Source: an uncultured Bacilli bacterium (GTDB lineage: Bacteria; Bacillota_I; Bacilli_A; RF39; UBA660). From it: a stretch of 41,634 bases of DNA. A program made the translations under genes and the position numbers. Positions 4,663 to 31,055 of this stretch are shown piece after piece. The stretch's first letter is position 1. Every line of letters starts with the position of its first letter. Location: positions 1 through 41,634 of the forward strand of contig CANQIS010000002.1 in assembly GCA_947624115.1 (NCBI GenBank), read 5' to 3'. Below the pieces are notes generated by a model, which saw only the letters and a list, made by a program, of their open reading frames with translations, was not told where the DNA came from and made no database searches.

Positions 4663-5523
4663 CTATTTTTTTCCATTTACATAATTTTCTAAAAGTGTTA
4701 CATCATCACTATCAATAAATCCATCACCATTAAAATCACTAGCATACATTCCATAATCATTACCATTACCATCAGTAAAATGTACAACTATAACACTTAA
4801 ATCATATCCTGCAAGACATCTTCGAATAAATGCTAAGTCTAAAATGTTTGTTACACCATCACCATTAATATCTGCATCTTTCTCATTTACACCTACGGAA
4901 TCTCCAGATAATAGTCCATTAAGCAATTCTAAATCTTTTTCATCAGTTACACCATCCTTATTTAAATCAGCAAAATCATTAGGACAATTTGCATTATTTG
5001 CAAGAAAATCTTTTAATTTTGATACATCACTATTATCAACTTTTCCATCACCATTAACATCACCTATTAAACGCGAATTACATTTACCCATAACTGAATT
5101 ATAATCTTCATTACTTGTATAATACTTATTACCATATTCTGCATCACAATATATAGACACATATTGACTATAATAATCATCATAATAAATTTTTATTGTC
5201 CCTTGCATATTCTTGTTCCCATTTAATGGATTTTTAACATCTTCATTTTTCAACAATCCACTCTGTTGTAATTCTGAAACACTTAATGTAATTGGTTCAT
5301 TAGCAAATGTTGCATTTGGTAATTCATTATCATTTGATGCTGCCCAGTTATCAGCTGCACTTAAAAGCCTATCAACTTGTTCAGCATACAATTTTTCTTT
5401 CGAATCATTTATTGAATTTAAAATAGATGGAATCGCAATTAAACCTAAAATAGCTAAAATAACAATCACAGCTAACAATTCAATTAAAGTAAATCCATTC
5501 GTCCTTTTATTATCTTTCATCAT
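4663..5523 (-). CDS. Type IV pilin-like (prepilin N-terminus) protein with two C-terminal dockerin-type modules
   Basis: The prepilin motif is KRTNG|FTLIELLAVIVILAILGLIAIP. The C-terminus has four DxNxDGxxxxxD calcium-loop repeats (DVNGDGKVDNSD, DLNKDGVTDEKD, DINGDGVTNILD, DFNGDGFIDSDD), arranged as two dockerin-like pairs. Confidence 0.8.
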   Translation of the reverse strand: MMKDNKRTNGFTLIELLAVIVILAILGLIAIPSILNSINDSKEKLYAEQVDRLLSAADNWAASNDNELPNATFANEPITLSVSELQQSGLLKNEDVKNPLNGNKNMQGTIKIYYDDYYSQYVSIYCDAEYGNKYYTSNEDYNSVMGKCNSRLIGDVNGDGKVDNSDVSKLKDFLANNANCPNDFADLNKDGVTDEKDLELLNGLLSGDSVGVNEKDADINGDGVTNILDLAFIRRCLAGYDLSVIVVHFTDGNGNDYGMYASDFNGDGFIDSDDVTLLENYVNGKK

Positions 5524-18963: not shown

Positions 18964-18993
18964 AATAAAAAAAATATGTCAAACATATTTTTT
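18964..18993 (-). terminator. Rho-independent terminator after pilin gene 2
   Basis: On the minus strand, AAAATATGT-TTG-ACATATTTT is followed by a T run, directly after the TAA stop. Confidence 0.6.
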
Positions 18994-20200
18994 AAAGACC
19001 TAAATTTGATTTATTTACGGTTATAACTGGACGAACACCATAATAGTTACTTCCGTTGACGTAGTTGTCGTCCAAGGAGCCGCAGTTGAACACACACCAC
19101 GCTAAAAAAGAGTAACTAGCATTCGTTGAAGAAGTCCAATATCCATAATTTCCACTTTGTTTCACATCACAACCATATTGGGTACAATCTTCTGTATTAT
19201 CAAACAACCATGCATATTTACTCTTTTTATTTGAACTTGCTACTTTGGTTTGCCATTTTTCTCCTGTACCATCTAAATAAAAATAGTCTTCATTTTGTAA
19301 TGTCCATCCTATTCCTCCATCATCTACCAGATTACTTGCTCCAGTTATCTCCGCTATTTCTTCGGCTTCAATTAATCTTGCTTTATTTCCATATGTTGAA
19401 TAATCTATTGTATATGAATGTGGTTGACCATCATATGTCCAACTTGCTGTATAAGGAATTGGTGATATTAATTCATCTGACCATGCTACTGTTTCATCTC
19501 TTAATGCTTCCAATACTTCTTTTGGACCTTTAAAATTCTCGCCACTTAAATTCCATGCTACTGTGCCTGTTATATTATGGTCTAATATTAAATTATAAAC
19601 AGCACTATCCTCCTTATCATTAAAGATATACCATTGCATACATCCTTCTGTTATACCAGTTTTACTTTGGTTTTTAGTATATTCATCTTCACTACATTGC
19701 TTACCATTAACTGGATTAAAATAAACTTTTGTTCCATTTTCCTTTATTTCTTTTTTTTCAATACAACTACTTTGTCCTTTTGAATATAAACATGTAAAAT
19801 TATTAATATTTAAATTTGTTGTTAATATATTTTTTCCACTATTACTTATTTTTATTGTTCCACTTGTTGGCTTTGTTCCTTTAAAATCTAATGTAGTTAA
19901 ATTATCCATATTATAACTATCATCTAATGTTTCTTTTAATTGACAACCATCGGTTGTACATTCAAAAGTGAGTGTTCCTTCTGGAAAGCCTCCATTATTT
20001 TGTAACATAAAACTTGTTACATAATTCTCAGCTGATTTGATAATACCACTTGTTGTATCCTCAGCAGCACTTTTTCTTGCCCTATTTAAAATATTTAATA
20101 TTTGTGGTACGGCAATCAAAGCAATAACAGCAAGTATTACTATTACTGCTAATAACTCTATTAATGTAAATCCTCTTTTTTTGTTATTAATTCTCATCAT
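18992..20200 (-). CDS. Type IV pilin-like protein with a large Cys-rich C-terminal domain
   Basis: The prepilin motif is KKRG|FTLIELLAVIVILAVIALIAVP. The roughly 360-aa C-terminal region ends with ARLIEAEEI...GYWTSS...YGVRPVI, reminiscent of DUF1566/Lcl-type lectin-like domains. That assignment is tentative. Confidence 0.8.
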   Translation of the reverse strand: MMRINNKKRGFTLIELLAVIVILAVIALIAVPQILNILNRARKSAAEDTTSGIIKSAENYVTSFMLQNNGGFPEGTLTFECTTDGCQLKETLDDSYNMDNLTTLDFKGTKPTSGTIKISNSGKNILTTNLNINNFTCLYSKGQSSCIEKKEIKENGTKVYFNPVNGKQCSEDEYTKNQSKTGITEGCMQWYIFNDKEDSAVYNLILDHNITGTVAWNLSGENFKGPKEVLEALRDETVAWSDELISPIPYTASWTYDGQPHSYTIDYSTYGNKARLIEAEEIAEITGASNLVDDGGIGWTLQNEDYFYLDGTGEKWQTKVASSNKKSKYAWLFDNTEDCTQYGCDVKQSGNYGYWTSSTNASYSFLAWCVFNCGSLDDNYVNGSNYYGVRPVITVNKSNLGL

Positions 20201-20262: not shown

Positions 20263-20388
20263 CACTTTTTTTTATATTAAAACTATAAAATATATCTGCT
20301 AGTTTTAATAACAAATTTAATTTATCATTAATACTATTTTATACTTCATATTTTTTTTTATTAATCATAAAATTAAATGGTGATAAGT

Positions 20389-21168
20389 ATGAATTTTCAA
20401 GTAGGAGATTTAGTAACACGAAACTCTTATAATAATGATATGGTATTTAAAATTACCGCCATTGAAAACACAATTTGTTATTTAAAAGGAATTAATGTAA
20501 GGTTAATAGCCGATAGTCCAGAATCTGATTTAGTTATATATGATAAAGAATTTACCGAAGATGAAGAATTTTTAGAACGTATAAAACCTAATTTAGACTT
20601 AGATAGAAGTGAATTCTTTTATTTACCAGGTAAAATTTTACACATTGATGGTGATAACGAATACTTAGAAAAATGTTTAAAATATTATGAAGATGACAAA
20701 CTAATGGCAATTGGAATAAGAGAAAATGAGGCTAATATAAAATTTAAAATTCGCGAATTATTAGAATTACATAACCCTAATATATTAGTTATAACAGGCC
20801 ATGATGCATATTACAAAAGAAAAGGAAGTCGAGATGATTTATCTGCTTACAAAAATAGTAAAAATTTTGTAGACGCTATAATAGAAGCTAGAAAATACGA
20901 ACATAGTCATGAAAAATTAATAATTATAGCTGGAGCTTGTCAATCAAATTATGAAGAATTAATAAAAGCTGGTGCCAATTTTGCTTCTAGCCCCAAAAGG
21001 ATTAATATTCACGCCCTAGACCCAGCAATTATCGCAACACGTATAAGCCTATCAGATATAAGTAAAGACATAGATTTAATAAACATCTTAGAAAATACAA
21101 AATATGGAAAAGATGGAATTGGTGGTATAAAAACTAAAGGTACTATGTATATTGGTTATCCTAGATAA
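20389..21168 (+). CDS. yabG: Sporulation-specific protease YabG
   Basis: The N-terminus MNFQVGDLVTRNSYNNDMVFKI resembles B. subtilis YabG. Conserved segments include LVITGHDAY, AGACQSNYEEL and INIHALDPA. SD GGTGAT lies upstream of the ATG at 20389. Confidence 0.85.
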   Translation: MNFQVGDLVTRNSYNNDMVFKITAIENTICYLKGINVRLIADSPESDLVIYDKEFTEDEEFLERIKPNLDLDRSEFFYLPGKILHIDGDNEYLEKCLKYYEDDKLMAIGIRENEANIKFKIRELLELHNPNILVITGHDAYYKRKGSRDDLSAYKNSKNFVDAIIEARKYEHSHEKLIIIAGACQSNYEELIKAGANFASSPKRINIHALDPAIIATRISLSDISKDIDLINILENTKYGKDGIGGIKTKGTMYIGYPR

Positions 21169-21180
21169 GGGGGAAATACT

Positions 21181-21405
21181 TTGACAATTGAACAAATAAG
21201 AGGTAATCTAAACGAACATCTTGGCAAAAAAGTCATCATAAAATATAATTTAGGTAGAAATAAATATGAGAAATATCATGCTAAAATAAAAGAACTGTAT
21301 AAAAATGTCTTCATAGTTGAATTAATAGAATCAAAAATAAAAAACGAAGTCAAATCATTTTCATATTCAGATATTATTACAAAAACAATAAAAATAGTTT
21401 ATTAA
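21181..21405 (+). CDS. veg: Veg protein (biofilm formation stimulator)
   Basis: This 74-aa protein (IRGNLNEHLGKKVIIKYNLGRNKYEKYHAKIKELY..FIVEL) matches the Veg family. It has a TTG start after SD AAGGGGGAAA and follows yabG, as in Bacillus. Confidence 0.8.
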   Translation: MTIEQIRGNLNEHLGKKVIIKYNLGRNKYEKYHAKIKELYKNVFIVELIESKIKNEVKSFSYSDIITKTIKIVY

Positions 21406-21488
21406 AAAAAATACACATAATATATTGCTTTTAAACTTTTTTTATTATACAATAAATGTGTAAGATAATACTGAAGGGAGAGATTTAC

Positions 21489-21746
21489 TTGAAAATTACA
21501 TCTGTAAAAGTTCATAAAACAGAAAAAGAAAATTCTAGAATGAAAGGAATGGTATCTGTAGTAATTGATGATTGTTTTGCTATTAGAGATATCAGAATAA
21601 TACAAGGTGACGACAAGCTATTCATAGCTATGCCAAGCCGTAAAGTAAATGATGATACTTATCATGATATTGCACATCCAATCAACCAAGAAACAAGAGA
21701 AATGTTTGAAAAAGCAATACTTGATGCATACAATGAAACTGAATAA
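21489..21746 (+). CDS. spoVG: Septation protein SpoVG
   Basis: KITSVKVHK...MKGMVSVVIDDCFAIRDIRIIQGDDKLFIAMPSRK...HDIAHPINQETRE aligns with SpoVG from its first residue. The TTG start at 21489 lies 6 nt after SD GAAGGGAGAG. The track start at 21456 has no SD. Confidence 0.9.
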   Translation: MKITSVKVHKTEKENSRMKGMVSVVIDDCFAIRDIRIIQGDDKLFIAMPSRKVNDDTYHDIAHPINQETREMFEKAILDAYNETE

Positions 21747-21854: not shown

Positions 21855-21892
21855 AAAAAGAACTATAATTTTAATGATATATAGTTCTTTAT
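21855..21892. terminator. Hairpin terminator downstream of surface protein gene 1 (usable in both directions)
   Basis: AAGAACTATA..(12-nt loop)..TATAGTTCTT is flanked by A and T runs. Confidence 0.6.
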
Positions 21893-21913: not shown

Positions 21914-22987
21914 TTAATTAGAAGCTTTTATAAATTTTATACCTAAACTAGAAATACCAATTAATCCGATTAACCCAACCACCACATACAATTTTGAATT
22001 ATTTTCACCTGTCTTTGGATTTTCAATTGTTGTCATTTCTTCCGAAGTCAAAGTTGTTGTTGTTGATATAGTTGATGGTTTTGTAGTTGTAGTTATTGTC
22101 GACGTTGTCGATGACTTTGTAGTTGTTGCCGTTGTCGACGTTATTGATGGTTTTGTCGTTGTAGTTGTTGTCGACGTTGTTGATGGTTTTGTCGTTGTAG
22201 TTGTTGTCGACGTTGTTGACGGTTTTGTCGTTGTAGTTGTTGTCGACGTTGTTGATGGTTTTGTCGTTGTAGTTGTTGTCGTTGTAGTTGATGTTGTAGT
22301 TGATGTTGTAGTTGATGTTGTAGTTGATGTTGTCGTCGTTGATGTTGTTGATGATGTAGTAGAAGAAGTACTTGAAGAAGTCGTCGTTGGATCAGAACCT
22401 TGACAAGTAATTAATAAATAATATGTATCACCCGTTGGTAAAAGTTCACTCGTCGTTAAAACTGCATATTCACCACTTAAATAATTATCAGTTTTATTAC
22501 TTCCTTGTGATATAACATTTTGAGAAGTAATAACTGATTTTATAGAATCATAACTTTTAATCTCATAATTATCAGTAAACTTAGAGCCAATATCATAAGC
22601 CGTCATAGTTCCACTTGTTGGACTAACACTTAATAAATAAATATGTTCTTTTTTATTTAAGTTAAATATTTGAGGAATATTTATATACATAGTTAACTTA
22701 TCATTTTTCGCATCCCAAGTTTGACCACCTTTTACTGTAAATTTAAATGGTACAACATTAGCTCTTGAAGCACCACTTGCTTCAGTATAAAATTCTTTAG
22801 CTGCTGCTGTAACAATTGGATCAACATTGGTCACAATCGACATTGTAACTTTATCATTTCCACCCGTCATATAATATTCATAATAAGTATTATCATGACT
22901 TATATTCAATGCACTAACATGAACAAGCGCTAAAACACATGTTCCAATAAAAATAAATGAAAATAAAATACTTAATAGCTTTCTCAT
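21914..22987 (-). CDS. Cell-wall-anchored surface protein, NPKTG sorting signal (class B sortase substrate type), Thr-rich stalk
   Basis: It has a signal peptide (MRKLLSILFSFIFIGTCVLALVHVSA) and a roughly 190-aa unassigned domain paralogous to 23127..23918. A long S/T-rich repeat stalk follows, then ENPKTG, a hydrophobic helix and a KFIKASN tail. Confidence 0.8.
   Translation of the reverse strand: MRKLLSILFSFIFIGTCVLALVHVSALNISHDNTYYEYYMTGGNDKVTMSIVTNVDPIVTAAAKEFYTEASGASRANVVPFKFTVKGGQTWDAKNDKLTMYINIPQIFNLNKKEHIYLLSVSPTSGTMTAYDIGSKFTDNYEIKSYDSIKSVITSQNVISQGSNKTDNYLSGEYAVLTTSELLPTGDTYYLLITCQGSDPTTTSSSTSSTTSSTTSTTTTSTTTSTTTSTTTSTTTTTTTTTKPSTTSTTTTTTKPSTTSTTTTTTKPSTTSTTTTTTKPSITSTTATTTKSSTTSTITTTTKPSTISTTTTLTSEEMTTIENPKTGENNSKLYVVVGLIGLIGISSLGIKFIKASN
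22059..22340. repeat. In-frame tandem repeats encoding the Thr-rich stalk
   Basis: There are six 36-bp units (22059..22274). Four are near-identical: GTTGTCGACGTTGTTGATGGTTTTGTCGTTGTAGTT, the reverse complement of TTTTTKPSTTST-type coding. They are followed by at least 4 copies of the 12-bp unit GTTGTAGTTGAT (22281..22328). Confidence 0.85.
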
Positions 22988-23011
22988 TTCAACACTCCTA
23001 TTCTAAAAACG

Positions 23012-23040
23012 AGTATATCAACTTTTTACCTATCAGTCAA
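23012..23040 (-). promoter_or_regulatory. Sigma-A-type promoter candidate for surface protein gene 1
   Basis: The minus strand reads TTGACT (23040..23035), a 17-nt spacer, then TATACT (23017..23012). Confidence 0.5.
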
Positions 23041-23082
23041 TGATATAAAATAAAAATAAATCATTAATAGACAAAAATTTAC

Positions 23083-23112
23083 ATAAAAAAATAAAACCGA
23101 AAGGCTTTATTT
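23083..23112 (-). terminator. Rho-independent terminator after surface protein gene 2
   Basis: On the minus strand, ATAAAGCC-TTTC-GGTTTTAT (one G-U pair) is followed by TTTTTT. Confidence 0.6.
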
Positions 23113-23126
23113 TTTATTTAGTTTTA

Positions 23127-23918
23127 TTATTTATTTGCTTTGGCAAATTTAATCCCCAAACCAGCTATTCCAATTACACCTATTACACCAATAATAAAGT
23201 ATAATTGATTACTATTCTCACCTGTTTTTGGATTTTCAACAGTCGTTGTTTGACTTGGTTTTGTTGTAGTAGTTGTAGTTGCAGTAGTTGTTATAGTTGT
23301 AGATGATGTTGTTAATTCAATTCCTTGGCAAGTAATTAACACATAATATGTATCACCAGTACTTTCAAAATCACCTGTTTCTAAAACAGCATATTGATTA
23401 CTAAAATAATCATCCTTTAAATTTGAACCTTTTGATACAACTGAATCTCCTTCAATTTCAGCCTTTACTGAATTATAATCCTTAATTTCATATTTTCTAG
23501 GTGTTTTCTGTTGTAATTTGTCACCAATTTCATAAACATCATAATCTCCACCTGATTTAATTCTCATTAAATATATATGATCTTTTTTATCCAAATTAAA
23601 AGTCTTTGGAATATTTATAAACATTTTAGCCTTATCAGATTCTTTATTCCAAGTATTTTCTGCTTTTACAGAAAATTTAAATGTAATCGCATTAACAATT
23701 TCTGCTCCACTTTCTGGTCTATAAAACTGAACAAGTGCTTTATTTATGTCATCATTATTTTCATCCATAATTGACATTGTTAATTTATCACTACCACCAG
23801 TCATATAGAAATCATAATAAACATCCTTATTAATTGTCAAAGCATTAGCTGAACCTAAACCAAACACACTAGCTGTAATAATTGCAAATGTAAATAATAA
23901 ACTAGCAAATTTCTTCAT
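23127..23918 (-). CDS. Cell-wall-anchored surface protein, NPKTG sorting signal, paralog of 21914..22987 with a short stalk
   Basis: I placed the start at 23918 (MKKFASLLFTF.., SD AGGAGAGG). It has the same conserved domain (YYDFYMTGGSDKLTMSI...GDTYYVLITCQG) and a short T-rich linker. ENPKTG, a TM helix and a KFAKANK tail follow. Confidence 0.8.
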   Translation of the reverse strand: MKKFASLLFTFAIITASVFGLGSANALTINKDVYYDFYMTGGSDKLTMSIMDENNDDINKALVQFYRPESGAEIVNAITFKFSVKAENTWNKESDKAKMFINIPKTFNLDKKDHIYLMRIKSGGDYDVYEIGDKLQQKTPRKYEIKDYNSVKAEIEGDSVVSKGSNLKDDYFSNQYAVLETGDFESTGDTYYVLITCQGIELTTSSTTITTTATTTTTTKPSQTTTVENPKTGENSNQLYFIIGVIGVIGIAGLGIKFAKANK

Positions 23919-23943
23919 TTTAACCTCTCCTATCTTTACACAA

Positions 23944-23972
23944 ATTATAGCAACTATTTTTATTATGGTCAA
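23944..23972 (-). promoter_or_regulatory. Sigma-A-type promoter candidate for surface protein gene 2
   Basis: The minus strand reads TTGACC (23972..23967), a 17-nt spacer, then TATAAT (23949..23944). Confidence 0.5.
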
Positions 23973-24053
23973 GAATAAAAGACTTCATACTATCTTATTA
24001 GACACAAATTTACATTATTCAAAATTTTATCATTTAAAGTTTTTCAATATTAA

Positions 24054-24082
24054 TTGATAATATAATTTAAGTAGGATATAAT
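24054..24082 (+). promoter_or_regulatory. Sigma-A-type promoter candidate for the sortase gene
   Basis: The sequence reads TTGATA (24054..24059), a 17-nt spacer, then TATAAT (24077..24082). Confidence 0.55.
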
Positions 24083-24097
24083 ATTAATGGTGATACT

Positions 24098-24931
24098 ATG
24101 AGAAAGCAAAACAAAAAATTTTGGATTTCATATATTTTATTTACAATTATTTTGTGCATTTCTTTATATAAAATAACAACAAAACAGATTAATTACAAAT
24201 TAATCGAACAACAAGAACTCGATATTAGAAAATTGGTTTCAATTGTTGAAGTAGCACCAAAAGAAGAAAATACTGAAATTGTAAATCCACCAGAGCCAGA
24301 AGAACCTACAGAGGACAATAATTATGTACCAAATGACTATTGGGACTATATAAATGTTCCACTTATAAGTGTTGATTTTAACAATTTATTAGCTAAAAAT
24401 AATGACACTGTAGCTTGGATACAACTAAACAATACAAATATTAATTATCCTGTAGTTCAAACAACAGATAATGATTATTACCTACATTACGCATATGACA
24501 AAACATATAATGAAGCTGGTTGGGTTTTTATGGATTATCGAAATAACCCCAACAATTTTGATCAAAATACTATTATTTATGGACATGGTATGAATAATAA
24601 TACTATGTTTGGATCATTAAGATATATAGTTGAAAATTGGTGGTATACTAATCAAGAAAATCATACTGTAAAATTATCAACACCAACAGAAAATACTTTA
24701 TGGCAAGTATTTAGTATTTATACCATTCCAGAAGAATCATACTACTTACAAACCAAATTTAATGGTGATGAACAATATATGGATTTCTTAAATACATTAA
24801 AATCAAGAAGTATATATAATTTTAATGCAGAACTAAATCCACAAGATAAAATAATTACTCTATCATCTTGTTACAACAACGAACTAAGAGTTGTACTACA
24901 CGCTAAACTAATAAAAAGAGAAACACGATGA
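24098..24931 (+). CDS. srtB: Class B sortase
   Basis: It has an N-terminal membrane anchor and the segments NNDTVAWIQL..NINYPVVQTTDNDYYLHY, IIYGHGM (catalytic His region) and ITLSSCY (TLxxC catalytic Cys), plus a downstream Arg (LRVV). It is divergent from two NPKTG substrates. Confidence 0.85.
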   Translation: MRKQNKKFWISYILFTIILCISLYKITTKQINYKLIEQQELDIRKLVSIVEVAPKEENTEIVNPPEPEEPTEDNNYVPNDYWDYINVPLISVDFNNLLAKNNDTVAWIQLNNTNINYPVVQTTDNDYYLHYAYDKTYNEAGWVFMDYRNNPNNFDQNTIIYGHGMNNNTMFGSLRYIVENWWYTNQENHTVKLSTPTENTLWQVFSIYTIPEESYYLQTKFNGDEQYMDFLNTLKSRSIYNFNAELNPQDKIITLSSCYNNELRVVLHAKLIKRETR

Positions 24932-24955: not shown

Positions 24956-24990
24956 AAAAACTGATAAATATTCTATTTATCAGTTTTTTT
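24956..24990. terminator. Bidirectional terminator between srtB and the convergent membrane protein gene
   Basis: AAACTGATAAAT-ATTCT-ATTTATCAGTTT is a 12-bp stem flanked by A and T runs. Confidence 0.7.
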
Positions 24991-24991
24991 A

Positions 24992-25738
24992 TTATCTTAT
25001 TAACAAAAATAATAATATAATTACAGTTACTATCAAAAATATAACTCCCATTATTTTCAAATACAAAATAACAAATCTATAAAATAAGCTTTTTTCAGCT
25101 TTTTCACTAAAATAATAATTACCATTAACTTTTTTTATAATTTGTTGTAATTTCAAATTTTTAAATATTAATTCATTATTATCTATTTCTCTTAAAATAT
25201 TTTCCTTACTAGTTGCCGAATACTTATCCATAGCATGATATGTCATAAATGCTTTTTTTACTTCTTCAACATTTTTTTGATTATCAAGCTTTAATTTATT
25301 TACATTATTAACTTTATCTGCATAAACTGGATCAACTTCCATTTTTAATTTTGAAATTACAGTACTTATTCCTAAAAATGTAAAAAATACTGACACAATT
25401 AAATCACGAATTATAGCAGAGGAAAATTCAGAATTTTGATAAAGCATTTGCAATTTATCTAAATTAACCGTAAATCCCTCTTTATATAATAAACAACAAG
25501 GAATAATTAACAAAGTTGATATAACTACTACCAATAAACTTATAATTGTAATTATTATTGGTGCTGTTTTATCTGGTTGACCTACTACTTTTTTATACCC
25601 TAATAAAGCACCATAAGCAATTACTGCTGCTAATATAGAGAATATCATATTTCCATAAATATATATTAATATCCAAGGAAGTGCAAATAAAAATCCACCA
25701 ATCAATGCACCAAAAATTCCCAAAACTCTTTTACTCAT
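24992..25738 (-). CDS. Hypothetical polytopic membrane protein, last gene of the ftsEX operon
   Basis: This 248-aa protein has about 4 N-terminal TM helices, a soluble roughly 90-aa segment and one C-terminal TM helix. It starts 13 nt after the ftsX stop, with SD GGGGATG. I recognised no family. Confidence 0.6.
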   Translation of the reverse strand: MSKRVLGIFGALIGGFLFALPWILIYIYGNMIFSILAAVIAYGALLGYKKVVGQPDKTAPIIITIISLLVVVISTLLIIPCCLLYKEGFTVNLDKLQMLYQNSEFSSAIIRDLIVSVFFTFLGISTVISKLKMEVDPVYADKVNNVNKLKLDNQKNVEEVKKAFMTYHAMDKYSATSKENILREIDNNELIFKNLKLQQIIKKVNGNYYFSEKAEKSLFYRFVILYLKIMGVIFLIVTVIILLFLLIR

Positions 25739-29423: not shown

Positions 29424-31055
29424 CTAACTATCTATCCAAGAAATTTCATAATCATTTATTTTAAAATAATTTTTATACCACTCCAATACATAATCATAAT
29501 TATCGGCGGTATGATAAGAATATTCCTCATATTTTATTCTTTTCAACTCAATACAACCATTATAATCAAAAAAAGACATCAAACTAATATTGCTAAAACC
29601 ATTTTTCTCTAATTCTGACTTATATTTTCTAATATAATATAATTTTTCATTATTATATCGCACTGCTTTTGAATTAACATAATAATGATACATTATGTCA
29701 CCAAAACAAAATAAATGATATCCAACAAATAAACAAATTAATAATTTATTTATTTTATAATAATCAAATTTTTTTAAACAATAAATTAAACCAACTATCA
29801 ATAACAAAATACTTATATAATAATTAATAAAAATAGAATATAGTAATAATATTAAAAATCTCTGTTTCTTATTACTATTGAAATAACAGTATAATAACAA
29901 CATAGTCATCGAAACAATTAATAATAAATAGAAGCGATATATATTATAAGAAACCAATAAAATTGAAACTAAACTAGAACAAATACCAGCTATAACTAAA
30001 TACATATAATATTTTTTTTGACCATCTTTAAAAGATATAAAAAAGTTATAAACATTTAAAATTAAATAGATAAAAGTAACAATAAAAAATCCATTATTTA
30101 AATTAATAAAGTTTATTTTTATAGATAGTAAAAAGCAAAATAATATTACAATATTAAAACATAATAAAAAAACTGAACAAACAAAATTGAATAAAGATTT
30201 ACTCTTTTTTAACAAATTAATATTTGAAATAACCGATAACATAAATATACAACGTATAATACTAGATGTATTGAATAAAAAATTAAAATAATCTTTCATT
30301 TTATAAATAAATGAAGATAAGAAATTTAAATCACCATTTTCAGTTCTTAATCTAGCAATATTACCTGGTATTAATAATAATAAAACCAAACAAAATATAG
30401 AAAATAATAATATTCTTTTTATACTTTTCCTACTTTTTAATTTTTTATCTTGTAAAATAAAAAGCAAAAAAACAATTCCAAATATCAATGTACTTTCCAT
30501 AAAAAAGCTAACAATAAAAAATAAAACACAACAGACCACAAAACGACATTTTGACATTTCTTTATCATTAATAATACAATCCAATAAAAAATAAACTATG
30601 ATAAATAACGGTAAACTGCCCCATAGATACAAAACAGTACCATAAGTCCAATACAAAATTTCTTTAGATATTTTTACATTTAAACCTACAAAAACTAAAG
30701 AAAATAGAAAAATCAATTGTGATTGATTATATTTTTTTTTAACATCAATTATTCTAGCTAGAAAAAAACATATACAAAATAGAAAAATTGGATTTAACAC
30801 TCTAAATACTACATAATTTCCAAAATTTAATATAATTAAAACCAAAAAATGTCCAAGTAATCTTCCCGACCAATCATAAAAAAACCACGATAAAAAATCA
30901 ATATAATTATGAATATTATATTTATCTGACACTAATATACTATAATCATCTGCATAATAAAACACATTCTGCATTTGTAAAAAAAATAAAATATAAAGTA
31001 TCAACAATAAAATTTGATACTTATATTTTAATAAAAAAGCAACTACTTTTTTCAT
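29424..31055 (-). CDS. Large polytopic membrane protein, GT-C-like (putative glycosyltransferase fold; function uncertain)
   Basis: This 543-aa protein has at least 12 predicted TM helices. An acidic motif (YYADDYS) follows TM1, as in GT-C / DUF6056-type enzymes, and there is a C-terminal soluble tail. Its start is 1 nt after the yutD stop (TAG-T-ATG). Confidence 0.6.
   Translation of the reverse strand: MKKVVAFLLKYKYQILLLILYILFFLQMQNVFYYADDYSILVSDKYNIHNYIDFLSWFFYDWSGRLLGHFLVLIILNFGNYVVFRVLNPIFLFCICFFLARIIDVKKKYNQSQLIFLFSLVFVGLNVKISKEILYWTYGTVLYLWGSLPLFIIVYFLLDCIINDKEMSKCRFVVCCVLFFIVSFFMESTLIFGIVFLLFILQDKKLKSRKSIKRILLFSIFCLVLLLLIPGNIARLRTENGDLNFLSSFIYKMKDYFNFLFNTSSIIRCIFMLSVISNINLLKKSKSLFNFVCSVFLLCFNIVILFCFLLSIKINFINLNNGFFIVTFIYLILNVYNFFISFKDGQKKYYMYLVIAGICSSLVSILLVSYNIYRFYLLLIVSMTMLLLYCYFNSNKKQRFLILLLYSIFINYYISILLLIVGLIYCLKKFDYYKINKLLICLFVGYHLFCFGDIMYHYYVNSKAVRYNNEKLYYIRKYKSELEKNGFSNISLMSFFDYNGCIELKRIKYEEYSYHTADNYDYVLEWYKNYFKINDYEISWIDS

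Follow-up and report, generated by a model that had tools for sequence, protein, structure and literature searches.

What does a class B sortase display on the cell surface when no genes for heme uptake stand beside it? The question is raised by a three-gene locus in a 41.6-kb stretch of DNA from an uncultured Bacilli bacterium of the RF39 lineage (contig CANQIS010000002.1, positions 1 to 41,634; the whole stretch is called the window below), where a sortase gene, srtB, adjoins two tandem genes for predicted wall-anchored proteins, referred to here as cargo A and cargo B. A reading of this DNA made earlier from the letters alone, the original prediction, had described such a locus, and all three of its open reading frames (ORFs) were located where it had put them:

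24098-24931, + strand: srtB, class B sortase, 277 aa
23127-23918, - strand: cargo B, 263 aa, the copy adjoining the sortase
21914-22987, - strand: cargo A, 357 aa

The sortase gene and the cargo genes are transcribed divergently out of a 179-bp intergenic region. The start of cargo B is taken as the ATG that follows the ribosome-binding site (RBS) GGAGAGG, as a longer ORF that begins with TTG and extends to 23972 would enter the promoter. Negative statements on linked genes and on further substrates cover the window and the syntenic loci of related genomes. The reading favored here, as probable although well short of secure, is that the locus encodes a dedicated pair of SrtB and substrate that anchors a protein with an orphan domain, and that this domain is a non-enzymatic binding or coat module.

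By its sequence, the sortase is of class B. It scores 170.5 bits on the class B equivalog model of NCBIfam (TIGR03064, cutoff 153.75) but only 83.6 on the model of the LPKTxAVK-specific subclass (cutoff 200), and it matches the general sortase family PF04203 (E = 2e-13). All 15 significant sequence matches in the PDB are SrtB-type, the closest being Bacillus anthracis SrtB (2oqw/1rz2, E = 1e-38), followed by the enzymes of Clostridioides difficile, Listeria monocytogenes, Staphylococcus aureus and Clostridium perfringens. The class B call of the original prediction is thereby upheld against class D, which it had named as one that would speak against it. The triad H163 (in YGHGM), C258 (LSSC) and R264 (LRVVLH) aligns with H140, C233 and R243 of B. 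anthracis SrtB, an N-terminal membrane anchor is predicted at residues of about 8-25, and the beta7-beta8 loop is shorter than in the B. anthracis enzyme.

The two cargos are built alike. A signal peptide of 26 residues, with A-x-A at its end, leads into a globular domain of ~170 aa and a low-complexity linker; then come E-NPKT-G-E, a stretch of about 20 hydrophobic residues and, at the C-terminus, a basic tail. In cargo B, the signal peptide (aa 1-26, ANA|L) is followed by the orphan domain (aa 27-199), a Thr-rich linker of 30 aa and a sorting signal that begins at E228 (E228-NPKT-G-E) and ends, after the hydrophobic segment, in KFAKANK. In cargo A, the corresponding parts are aa 1-26 (VSA|L), aa 27-197, a stalk of 126 aa, and E322-NPKT-G-E with its hydrophobic segment and the tail KFIKASN, so that the pattern K-F-x-K-A is common to both tails. 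The A-x-A sites and the tails were read from the sequence; each cargo thus has a signal peptide and a tripartite sorting signal. The cargos also pass the LPXTG-anchor models (PF00746, 23.1 against a cutoff of 20; TIGR01167, 19.8 and 21.7 against 15.9), which bears out the ENPKTG signal, membrane segment and basic tail previously assigned to both. They are the only proteins with a sorting signal in the window.

How well the signal fits the enzyme can be judged from the B. anthracis system, where SrtB recognises the NPKTG of IsdC and needs Asp at both P5 and P2' (PMC11987632). The original prediction had taken NPKTG for a class B signal, and B. anthracis SrtB does use exactly this pentapeptide (PMC11987632). 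The substrates that adjoin srtB are of the NPxT type and not LPxTG, with two ENPKTGE proteins here, and this adjacency is found in all related loci. Across the family, the signal takes the form [E/D]-NP[K/E]T-x-[E/D] in 17 of 17 sequences, with G, A, Y or L at P1'. The acidic P5 and P2' positions match the requirement of B. anthracis SrtB, which supports the pairing of srtB with the cargo. On the enzyme side, the residues reported to contact the P5 Asp (N102, Y124, R125 and Y190) are kept in srtB as N125, Y147, R148 and Y215, according to our alignment mapping. From these correspondences we infer, with considerable confidence, that SrtB cleaves the cargo and anchors it to the wall.

The part of the signal that lies beyond the cleavage site (QLYIVIG..GLG.KFAKA; for example 21917-22024 and 23130-23237) has a mean column identity of 69%, against 48% for the domain. 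Such conservation is atypical for sorting signals, and it may reflect contact of the tail with the membrane anchor of SrtB, which is just as conserved. A profile search with the C-terminal tail for other types of cargo returned two short fragments only, the query being short and the search word-filtered; within that scope, a further cargo type is not evident.

The displayed domain has no relative among known families. Neither cargo's domain matches Pfam or NCBIfam; in Pfam, a threshold as loose as E <= 10 still gives no family that two or more of 13 members match. PHROG and PADLOC give no match, nor do PDB sequences searched with a profile of 7 or 13 sequences. AlphaFold2 models are confident (cargo A, from 7 sequences, pLDDT 87.1 and pTM 0.85; cargo B, from 13 sequences, pLDDT 84.6 and pTM 0.83), and both have the same order of secondary structure, with about 12 strands and 3 short helices. 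Foldseek searches of PDB and BFVD with both models gave nothing at E <= 1e-3, and the best TM-score was 0.42. The highest PDB probability, 0.66, belongs to the carbohydrate-binding module CBM3a (1nbc), with E = 0.08 and a TM-score of 0.34-0.36; this is not a significant match to CBM3, and CBM3 is absent from the matches of the cargo B model. The domain had been called unassigned, and every family library and fold search agrees. The profile and structure-prediction searches that had been proposed as a check matched no characterised family or adhesin fold. The domain may therefore, judging from the models, be a new fold.

Six domain residues are invariant: K19, V58, T63, D69, P78 and C168. The Cys is at the end of the last strand and is the single Cys of the mature protein in all 17 family sequences examined. 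No His, Glu or Gln of the domain is invariant, which argues against a Cys protease, a transglutaminase, a thioester or a classical isopeptide site.

The family is very rare. Six proteins came out of a word-indexed search that covered 5.8 billion clusters. Exhaustive profile searching with HMMER, over 1.84 billion cluster representatives, gave 13 matches at E <= 1e-3; nine are real members, and among the nine is a fragment of cargo B from the window itself. A pattern scan across 185,579 species, each represented by a single genome, found 3 metagenome-assembled genomes (MAGs), and a second database search with a 13-sequence profile returned only 3 members that were already known. The exhaustive search is a better guide to the size of the family than the 13-sequence profile search. 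Overall, the family amounts to only some dozen sequence clusters in 15 billion proteins. Four large repeat proteins (P0014-P0017, E = 6e-9 to 5e-4) were considered as relatives and rejected, as they match in a short strand-turn motif only; the most suggestive of these weak matches, P0017 (LYYDFTLTGG...), has an hhalign probability of 4.5% and no Pfam domain. Linkers in the 17 family sequences range from 12 to 126 aa and are Thr-rich or PEPTKPT-like.

In all 8 lineages with usable context (loci L001-L004, L005 and L006, L007, L009, L010 and L011), the cargo gene is beside a divergent srtB in a slot between FtsEX and YabG. The lineages are uncultured and come from rabbit gut and other metagenome samples; rabbit gut metagenome runs contain the same sequence as the window. 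Compared with relatives, the window is 29-57% identical in the cargo domain, 67-74% in SrtB and 47-96% in the flanking proteins. Among three closely related MAGs, the ratio of nonsynonymous to synonymous substitution rates (dN/dS) of the cargo is 0.05-0.12, similar to that of SrtB. The cargo genes are thus under purifying selection, and gene-wide positive selection, which was considered, is not detectable at these values. The low identity of the cargo over long distances reflects either weaker constraint or episodic change. The cargo is a confidently foldable domain under purifying selection that has no family or solved-structure relative.

The window and the distant locus L010 have two cargo copies, while most lineages have a single copy (5 of the 7 lineages with examined loci). 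Cargo A and cargo B align over ~200 N-terminal residues (47% identity, E = 2e-63), with the C-terminal sorting signals aligning separately, and on this comparison they are clear, deeply diverged paralogs. In a distance tree, both group in one clade with the single-copy ortholog P0001, and cargo B, which is 57% identical to P0001, is the nearest to it. Tree and position together indicate that cargo B is the positional and sequence ortholog, and cargo A an extra copy that has diverged faster.

The original prediction held that the two paralogs differ mainly in stalk length. This does not stand, as the globular domains themselves are just 47-48% identical. Of the lengths it gave, about 30 aa is correct for cargo B, but the stalk of cargo A measures 126 aa and not about 150, and its motif strings for the domain are off by one residue in two places (cargo A, for example, reads YYEYYMTGG). 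The stalk of cargo A is 81% Thr + Ser and owes its length to a tandem array:

22082-22293, - strand: tandem array in the stalk of cargo A, 36-bp units, 5.9 copies, 89% matches, encoding the 12-aa unit TTTTTKPSTTST

Contigs assembled from public short reads break within this repeat (22173-22360) and do not confirm its copy number. The idea that one domain would be held at two heights above the wall is weakened on three counts: 5 of the 7 lineages with examined loci carry one cargo copy, the linker length of the family spans 12-126 aa, and stalk A is a 36-bp array with a copy number that is not independently confirmed.

Each cargo gene was also predicted to have its own promoter and terminator. 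Promoters were matched upstream of both, and a hairpin followed by a U-run lies after each. The signals around the three genes are as follows, with hairpin z-scores giving the folding energy relative to shuffled controls:

24054-24082, + strand: srtB promoter, TTGATA-17-TATAAT, 11 of 12 consensus positions, in a block kept in six other lineages
23944-23972, - strand: cargo B promoter, TTGACC-17-TGnTATAAT with extended -10, 11 of 12 consensus positions
23924-23930, - strand: cargo B RBS, GGAGAGG
23012-23040, - strand: cargo A promoter, TTGACT-17-TATACT with TG extension
23995-24014, - strand: upstream box TGTAAAtTTGTGTCTAATAA, ~20 bp upstream of the cargo B -35, kept at 7 of 7 aligned cargo genes
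~23062-23083, - strand: cargo A copy of the upstream box (TGTAAA)
23086-23115, - strand: hairpin terminator of cargo B, dG -10.9 kcal/mol, z-score -3.5, then a U-run
21857-21890, - strand: hairpin terminator of cargo A, dG -9.7 kcal/mol, z-score -2.9, then a U-run
24957-24988, + strand: hairpin terminator of srtB, dG -17 kcal/mol, z-score -5.2, shared with the convergent gene at 24992-25738

Aligning what lies upstream of seven cargo genes, which come from five lineages and include second copies, shows conservation of the -35, the extended -10, the RBS and the TGTAAA-containing box, and the cargo promoter is kept nearly base for base where the cargo proteins are ~30% identical. The box, in the form TGTAAAnTTGTGTCTAATAA and ~20 bp upstream of the -35, is also seen in L001, L007, L010 and L011, again including second copies. 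It may be the site of a regulator (operator or activator) or an UP element. Cargo A carries a matching promoter and box, which indicates that the whole transcription unit was duplicated. As the promoters are of sigma-A-type consensus, the cargo is probably expressed in vegetative cells.

Taken through in order, the mechanism would run as follows. The cargo precursor would be exported via its Sec signal peptide and retained in the membrane by the C-terminal hydrophobic segment and basic tail. Membrane-anchored SrtB would recognise [E/D]-NPKT-x-[E/D], cut after the Thr and transfer the cargo to a peptidoglycan cross-bridge. The Thr-rich or Pro/Thr-rich linker would then span the wall and display the compact, mostly-beta domain of ~170 aa, which belongs to an undescribed, lineage-restricted family and would serve, without enzymatic activity, as a ligand- or host-binding module or as part of a surface coat. 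Expression would be vegetative and, from a strong sigma-A-type promoter, presumably at a high level. In the organism of the window, the whole cargo transcription unit would have been duplicated, after which domain and stalk diverged. For the domain itself, a binding or structural role is a tentative suggestion to which we give somewhat less than even weight.

Several points weigh against this account. Of the P2' contacts, two are not kept in srtB (R116 is replaced by Glu and K143 by Asn), and the Tyr or Leu that distant members have at P1' is uncommon among sortase signals; a literature search on NPKTA, NPKTL and NPKTY as sorting signals found nothing relevant. Absence of catalytic signatures leads to a binding or structural role by default, which is not a positive result, and the invariant sole Cys could mean chemistry that is not accounted for. 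No RNA runs that hold the locus were found.

Class B sortases that recognise NPxTG-like signals invite comparison with heme uptake, and the cargo could be a cryptic, highly diverged NEAT hemophore that SrtB anchors in the way known for IsdC of B. anthracis and S. aureus. The sortase is nearest to B. anthracis SrtB, the pentapeptide is identical to that of B. anthracis IsdC, and the IsdC model TIGR03656 does match cargo B weakly (E = 0.026), although only in the C-terminal anchor (residues 210-260). However, none of the 13 members matches the Pfam NEAT domain (PF05031) even at E <= 10, and the top 50 Foldseek matches of either model include no NEAT structure, despite the many in PDB, in keeping with the original statement that no NEAT hallmarks could be seen. 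NEAT domains have a length of about 125 aa, as opposed to ~170 aa here. The window has no genes of heme or iron transport, which upholds the original statement on heme transporters; heme ATP-binding cassette (ABC) transporter, heme oxygenase and other Isd genes are lacking from it and from the syntenic loci, and a heme or iron receptor appears exceedingly improbable. Polymerisation into a pilus, in which cargo subunits would be joined head to tail as in Streptococcus pyogenes and the paralogs would be shaft and tip or base pilins, is suggested by the ability of some class B sortases to polymerise pili, by the two tandem paralogous substrates beside one sortase and by the invariant Lys K19. This is highly unlikely, as most lineages examined have a single cargo gene, K19 is not within a recognisable pilin motif, no member matches a Cna-type or pilin Pfam domain, and the sole pilin among the fold matches is CfaB (TM-scores 0.12-0.17), with no Gram-positive pilin. 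A linker of low complexity, made of Thr or Pro/Thr and 12-126 aa long, is instead the mark of a monomeric wall-spanning protein, and the locus has no gene for a SipA-like chaperone.

The genomic setting allows a role in sporulation or at the spore surface, comparable to that of the B. anthracis class D sortase with BasH and BasI, since in every lineage the locus sits among YabG, SpoVG, YabP, YabQ, SpoIVA and YunB. This adjacency says little, however, because the broadly conserved origin-proximal gene order also includes FtsEX, RF2 and LeuRS; with near-consensus sigma-A promoters (TTGACC-17-TGnTATAAT) and not those of sigma-E, -K, -F or -G, and a sortase of class B rather than D, a spore protein is improbable. 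We regard as similarly improbable a thiol-dependent enzyme or a covalent-capture adhesin, in which C168 would be catalytic or would bond a ligand or another subunit. No member lacks C168, and no mature protein has a second Cys, but no invariant His, Gln or Glu accompanies C168 for a protease, transglutaminase or thioester site, Gln follows it in the two window copies only, and its position in the last predicted beta-strand, beside conserved hydrophobic residues (L-I-T-C), fits a buried core; no enzyme family or fold was matched either. Finally, the cargo may be no sortase substrate at all but a protein with a C-terminal membrane anchor, in which the conserved NPKT has some other purpose. The strong conservation of the hydrophobic segment and tail relative to the domain (69% and 48% column identity), and the variable P1', would agree with this. 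The constant adjacency to srtB, the fit of acidic-NPKT-x-acidic to what B. anthracis SrtB was shown by experiment to need, and the LPXTG-anchor scores above cutoff, all speak for a substrate, and leave a plain membrane anchor very unlikely.

Anchoring of an orphan-domain protein by a dedicated SrtB can be set beside several known systems. The closest is the pair of SrtB and IsdC in B. anthracis, which shares with the window a class B sortase that is the closest solved relative (E = 1e-38), an identical NPKTG with acidic P5 and P2', a sortase dedicated to one or two adjacent substrates, and a small substrate whose signal is preceded by a long disordered linker. It differs in that the cargo of the window is not NEAT, has no isd transport or heme-degradation genes with it and shows no sign of iron regulation, and in that the family has different residues at P1' (G, A, Y, L) and the sortase a shorter beta7-beta8 loop. 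Class B sortases with non-NEAT cargo are already known: C. difficile SrtB anchors non-NEAT adhesins and wall hydrolases, and the S. pyogenes class B pilus is also non-NEAT cargo. C. difficile SrtB ((S/P)PxTG; CD0386, CD2831) likewise anchors non-NEAT surface proteins in a gut spore-forming Firmicute. However, P4 is Ser or Pro there and Asn in the window, and its substrates, dispersed over the genome, have known domains (among them collagen-binding ones), whereas the cargo of the window is an orphan domain that is always beside its sortase. L. monocytogenes SrtB, with SvpA and Lmo2186 (NAKTN, NPKSS), also has two paralogous substrates in the same locus. Those of Listeria are of NEAT type and are encoded in an operon under iron regulation; the window shows neither feature. 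With respect to the domain, CBM3a (1nbc, 4jo5) gives the top-probability Foldseek PDB matches of the cargo A model (0.60-0.66) and is similar in size (155-170 aa); CBM3 domains are binding modules that, like the cargo domain, are mostly beta, surface-displayed and followed by Thr/Pro-rich linkers. With TM-scores of 0.31-0.36, E of 0.05-0.08 and no sequence match, this is a resemblance and not membership.

The wider window has a G+C content of 20-31%, and the locus has genes of housekeeping and sporulation as its neighbors (RecA, RNase Y, SpoIVA, LeuRS, a GH31 enzyme, DivIC, YabG, Veg, SpoVG, FtsEX, a peptide chain release factor with PCRF/RF-1 domains, YunB and RNase J). A tblastn search of 50,697 phage and 72,556 plasmid records found no match to the cargo; together with the negative defence and phage libraries, this gives no sign of a mobile or phage origin.

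Other features were seen in the same stretch:

20377-21746, + strand: YabG-Veg-SpoVG block; all related loci have it on the other strand, running in the direction of the cargo and YabP
18992-20200, - strand: prepilin-like protein of 402 aa with an N_methyl motif, a ComGC/PilA-type N-terminus and a large C-terminal domain without confident match
24992-25738, - strand: multi-pass membrane protein of 248 aa without family match, convergent with srtB
29424-31055, - strand: membrane protein of 543 aa, DUF6056, labelled GT_STM0557_N (GtrC-like) in precomputed annotation
4663-5523, - strand: protein of 286 aa with a prepilin N-terminal methylation motif (PF07963, E = 8e-8) and a C-terminal type I dockerin (PF00404, E = 1e-19)
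1196-2968, - strand: HerA/DUF87-type ATPase of 590 aa with weak FtsK and TrwB-like matches, at the window edge

The orientation of the YabG-Veg-SpoVG block points to a local inversion of ~1.4 kb, beside an inserted pilin-like gene and the duplicated cargo; inverted repeats looked for at its borders were AT-rich chance matches only. The pilin-like gene is the one at 18992-20200, which sits between YabP and YabG, where L001, L005 and L010 have no gene. The combination of pilin-like and dockerin parts at 4663-5523 is an unusual architecture. Two neighbors were considered as parts of the sortase system and rejected. The protein at 24992-25738 is 62-65% identical in close relatives, but it is absent from L010 and L011, which keep sortase and cargo, and is thus no obligate part. 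The protein at 29424-31055 may be an extracytoplasmic glycosyltransferase; as a glycosyltransferase of the stalk it fails, since L001 has it but L005 and L010, both with cargo, do not.

The original prediction had spoken of a new SrtB cargo. The domain family is indeed undescribed, but a non-NEAT cargo of SrtB is not new in kind. The display mechanism is textbook knowledge; what is new is a very rare cargo domain that has not been described. A bolder version of the account, which we think doubtful, would make the domain a new fold and the sole cargo of a SrtB lineage that reads acidic P5, NPKT and acidic P2' and tolerates any P1' (G, A, Y, L), with duplication and 36-bp repeat expansion giving two antigenically distinct versions at different distances from the wall. 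If that were true, a small-genome, uncultured lineage of gut Bacilli would have a simple two-tier surface coat. The value of the finding is modest and for specialists, and no long-standing question is opened or settled by it. If characterised, the domain would add a structural family to the sortase substrates, and the natural P1' series (G, A, Y, L) would be of use for studies of class B specificity, which bears on sortase-mediated ligation. For the organisms themselves, the cargo may be the main wall-anchored surface protein of the lineage.

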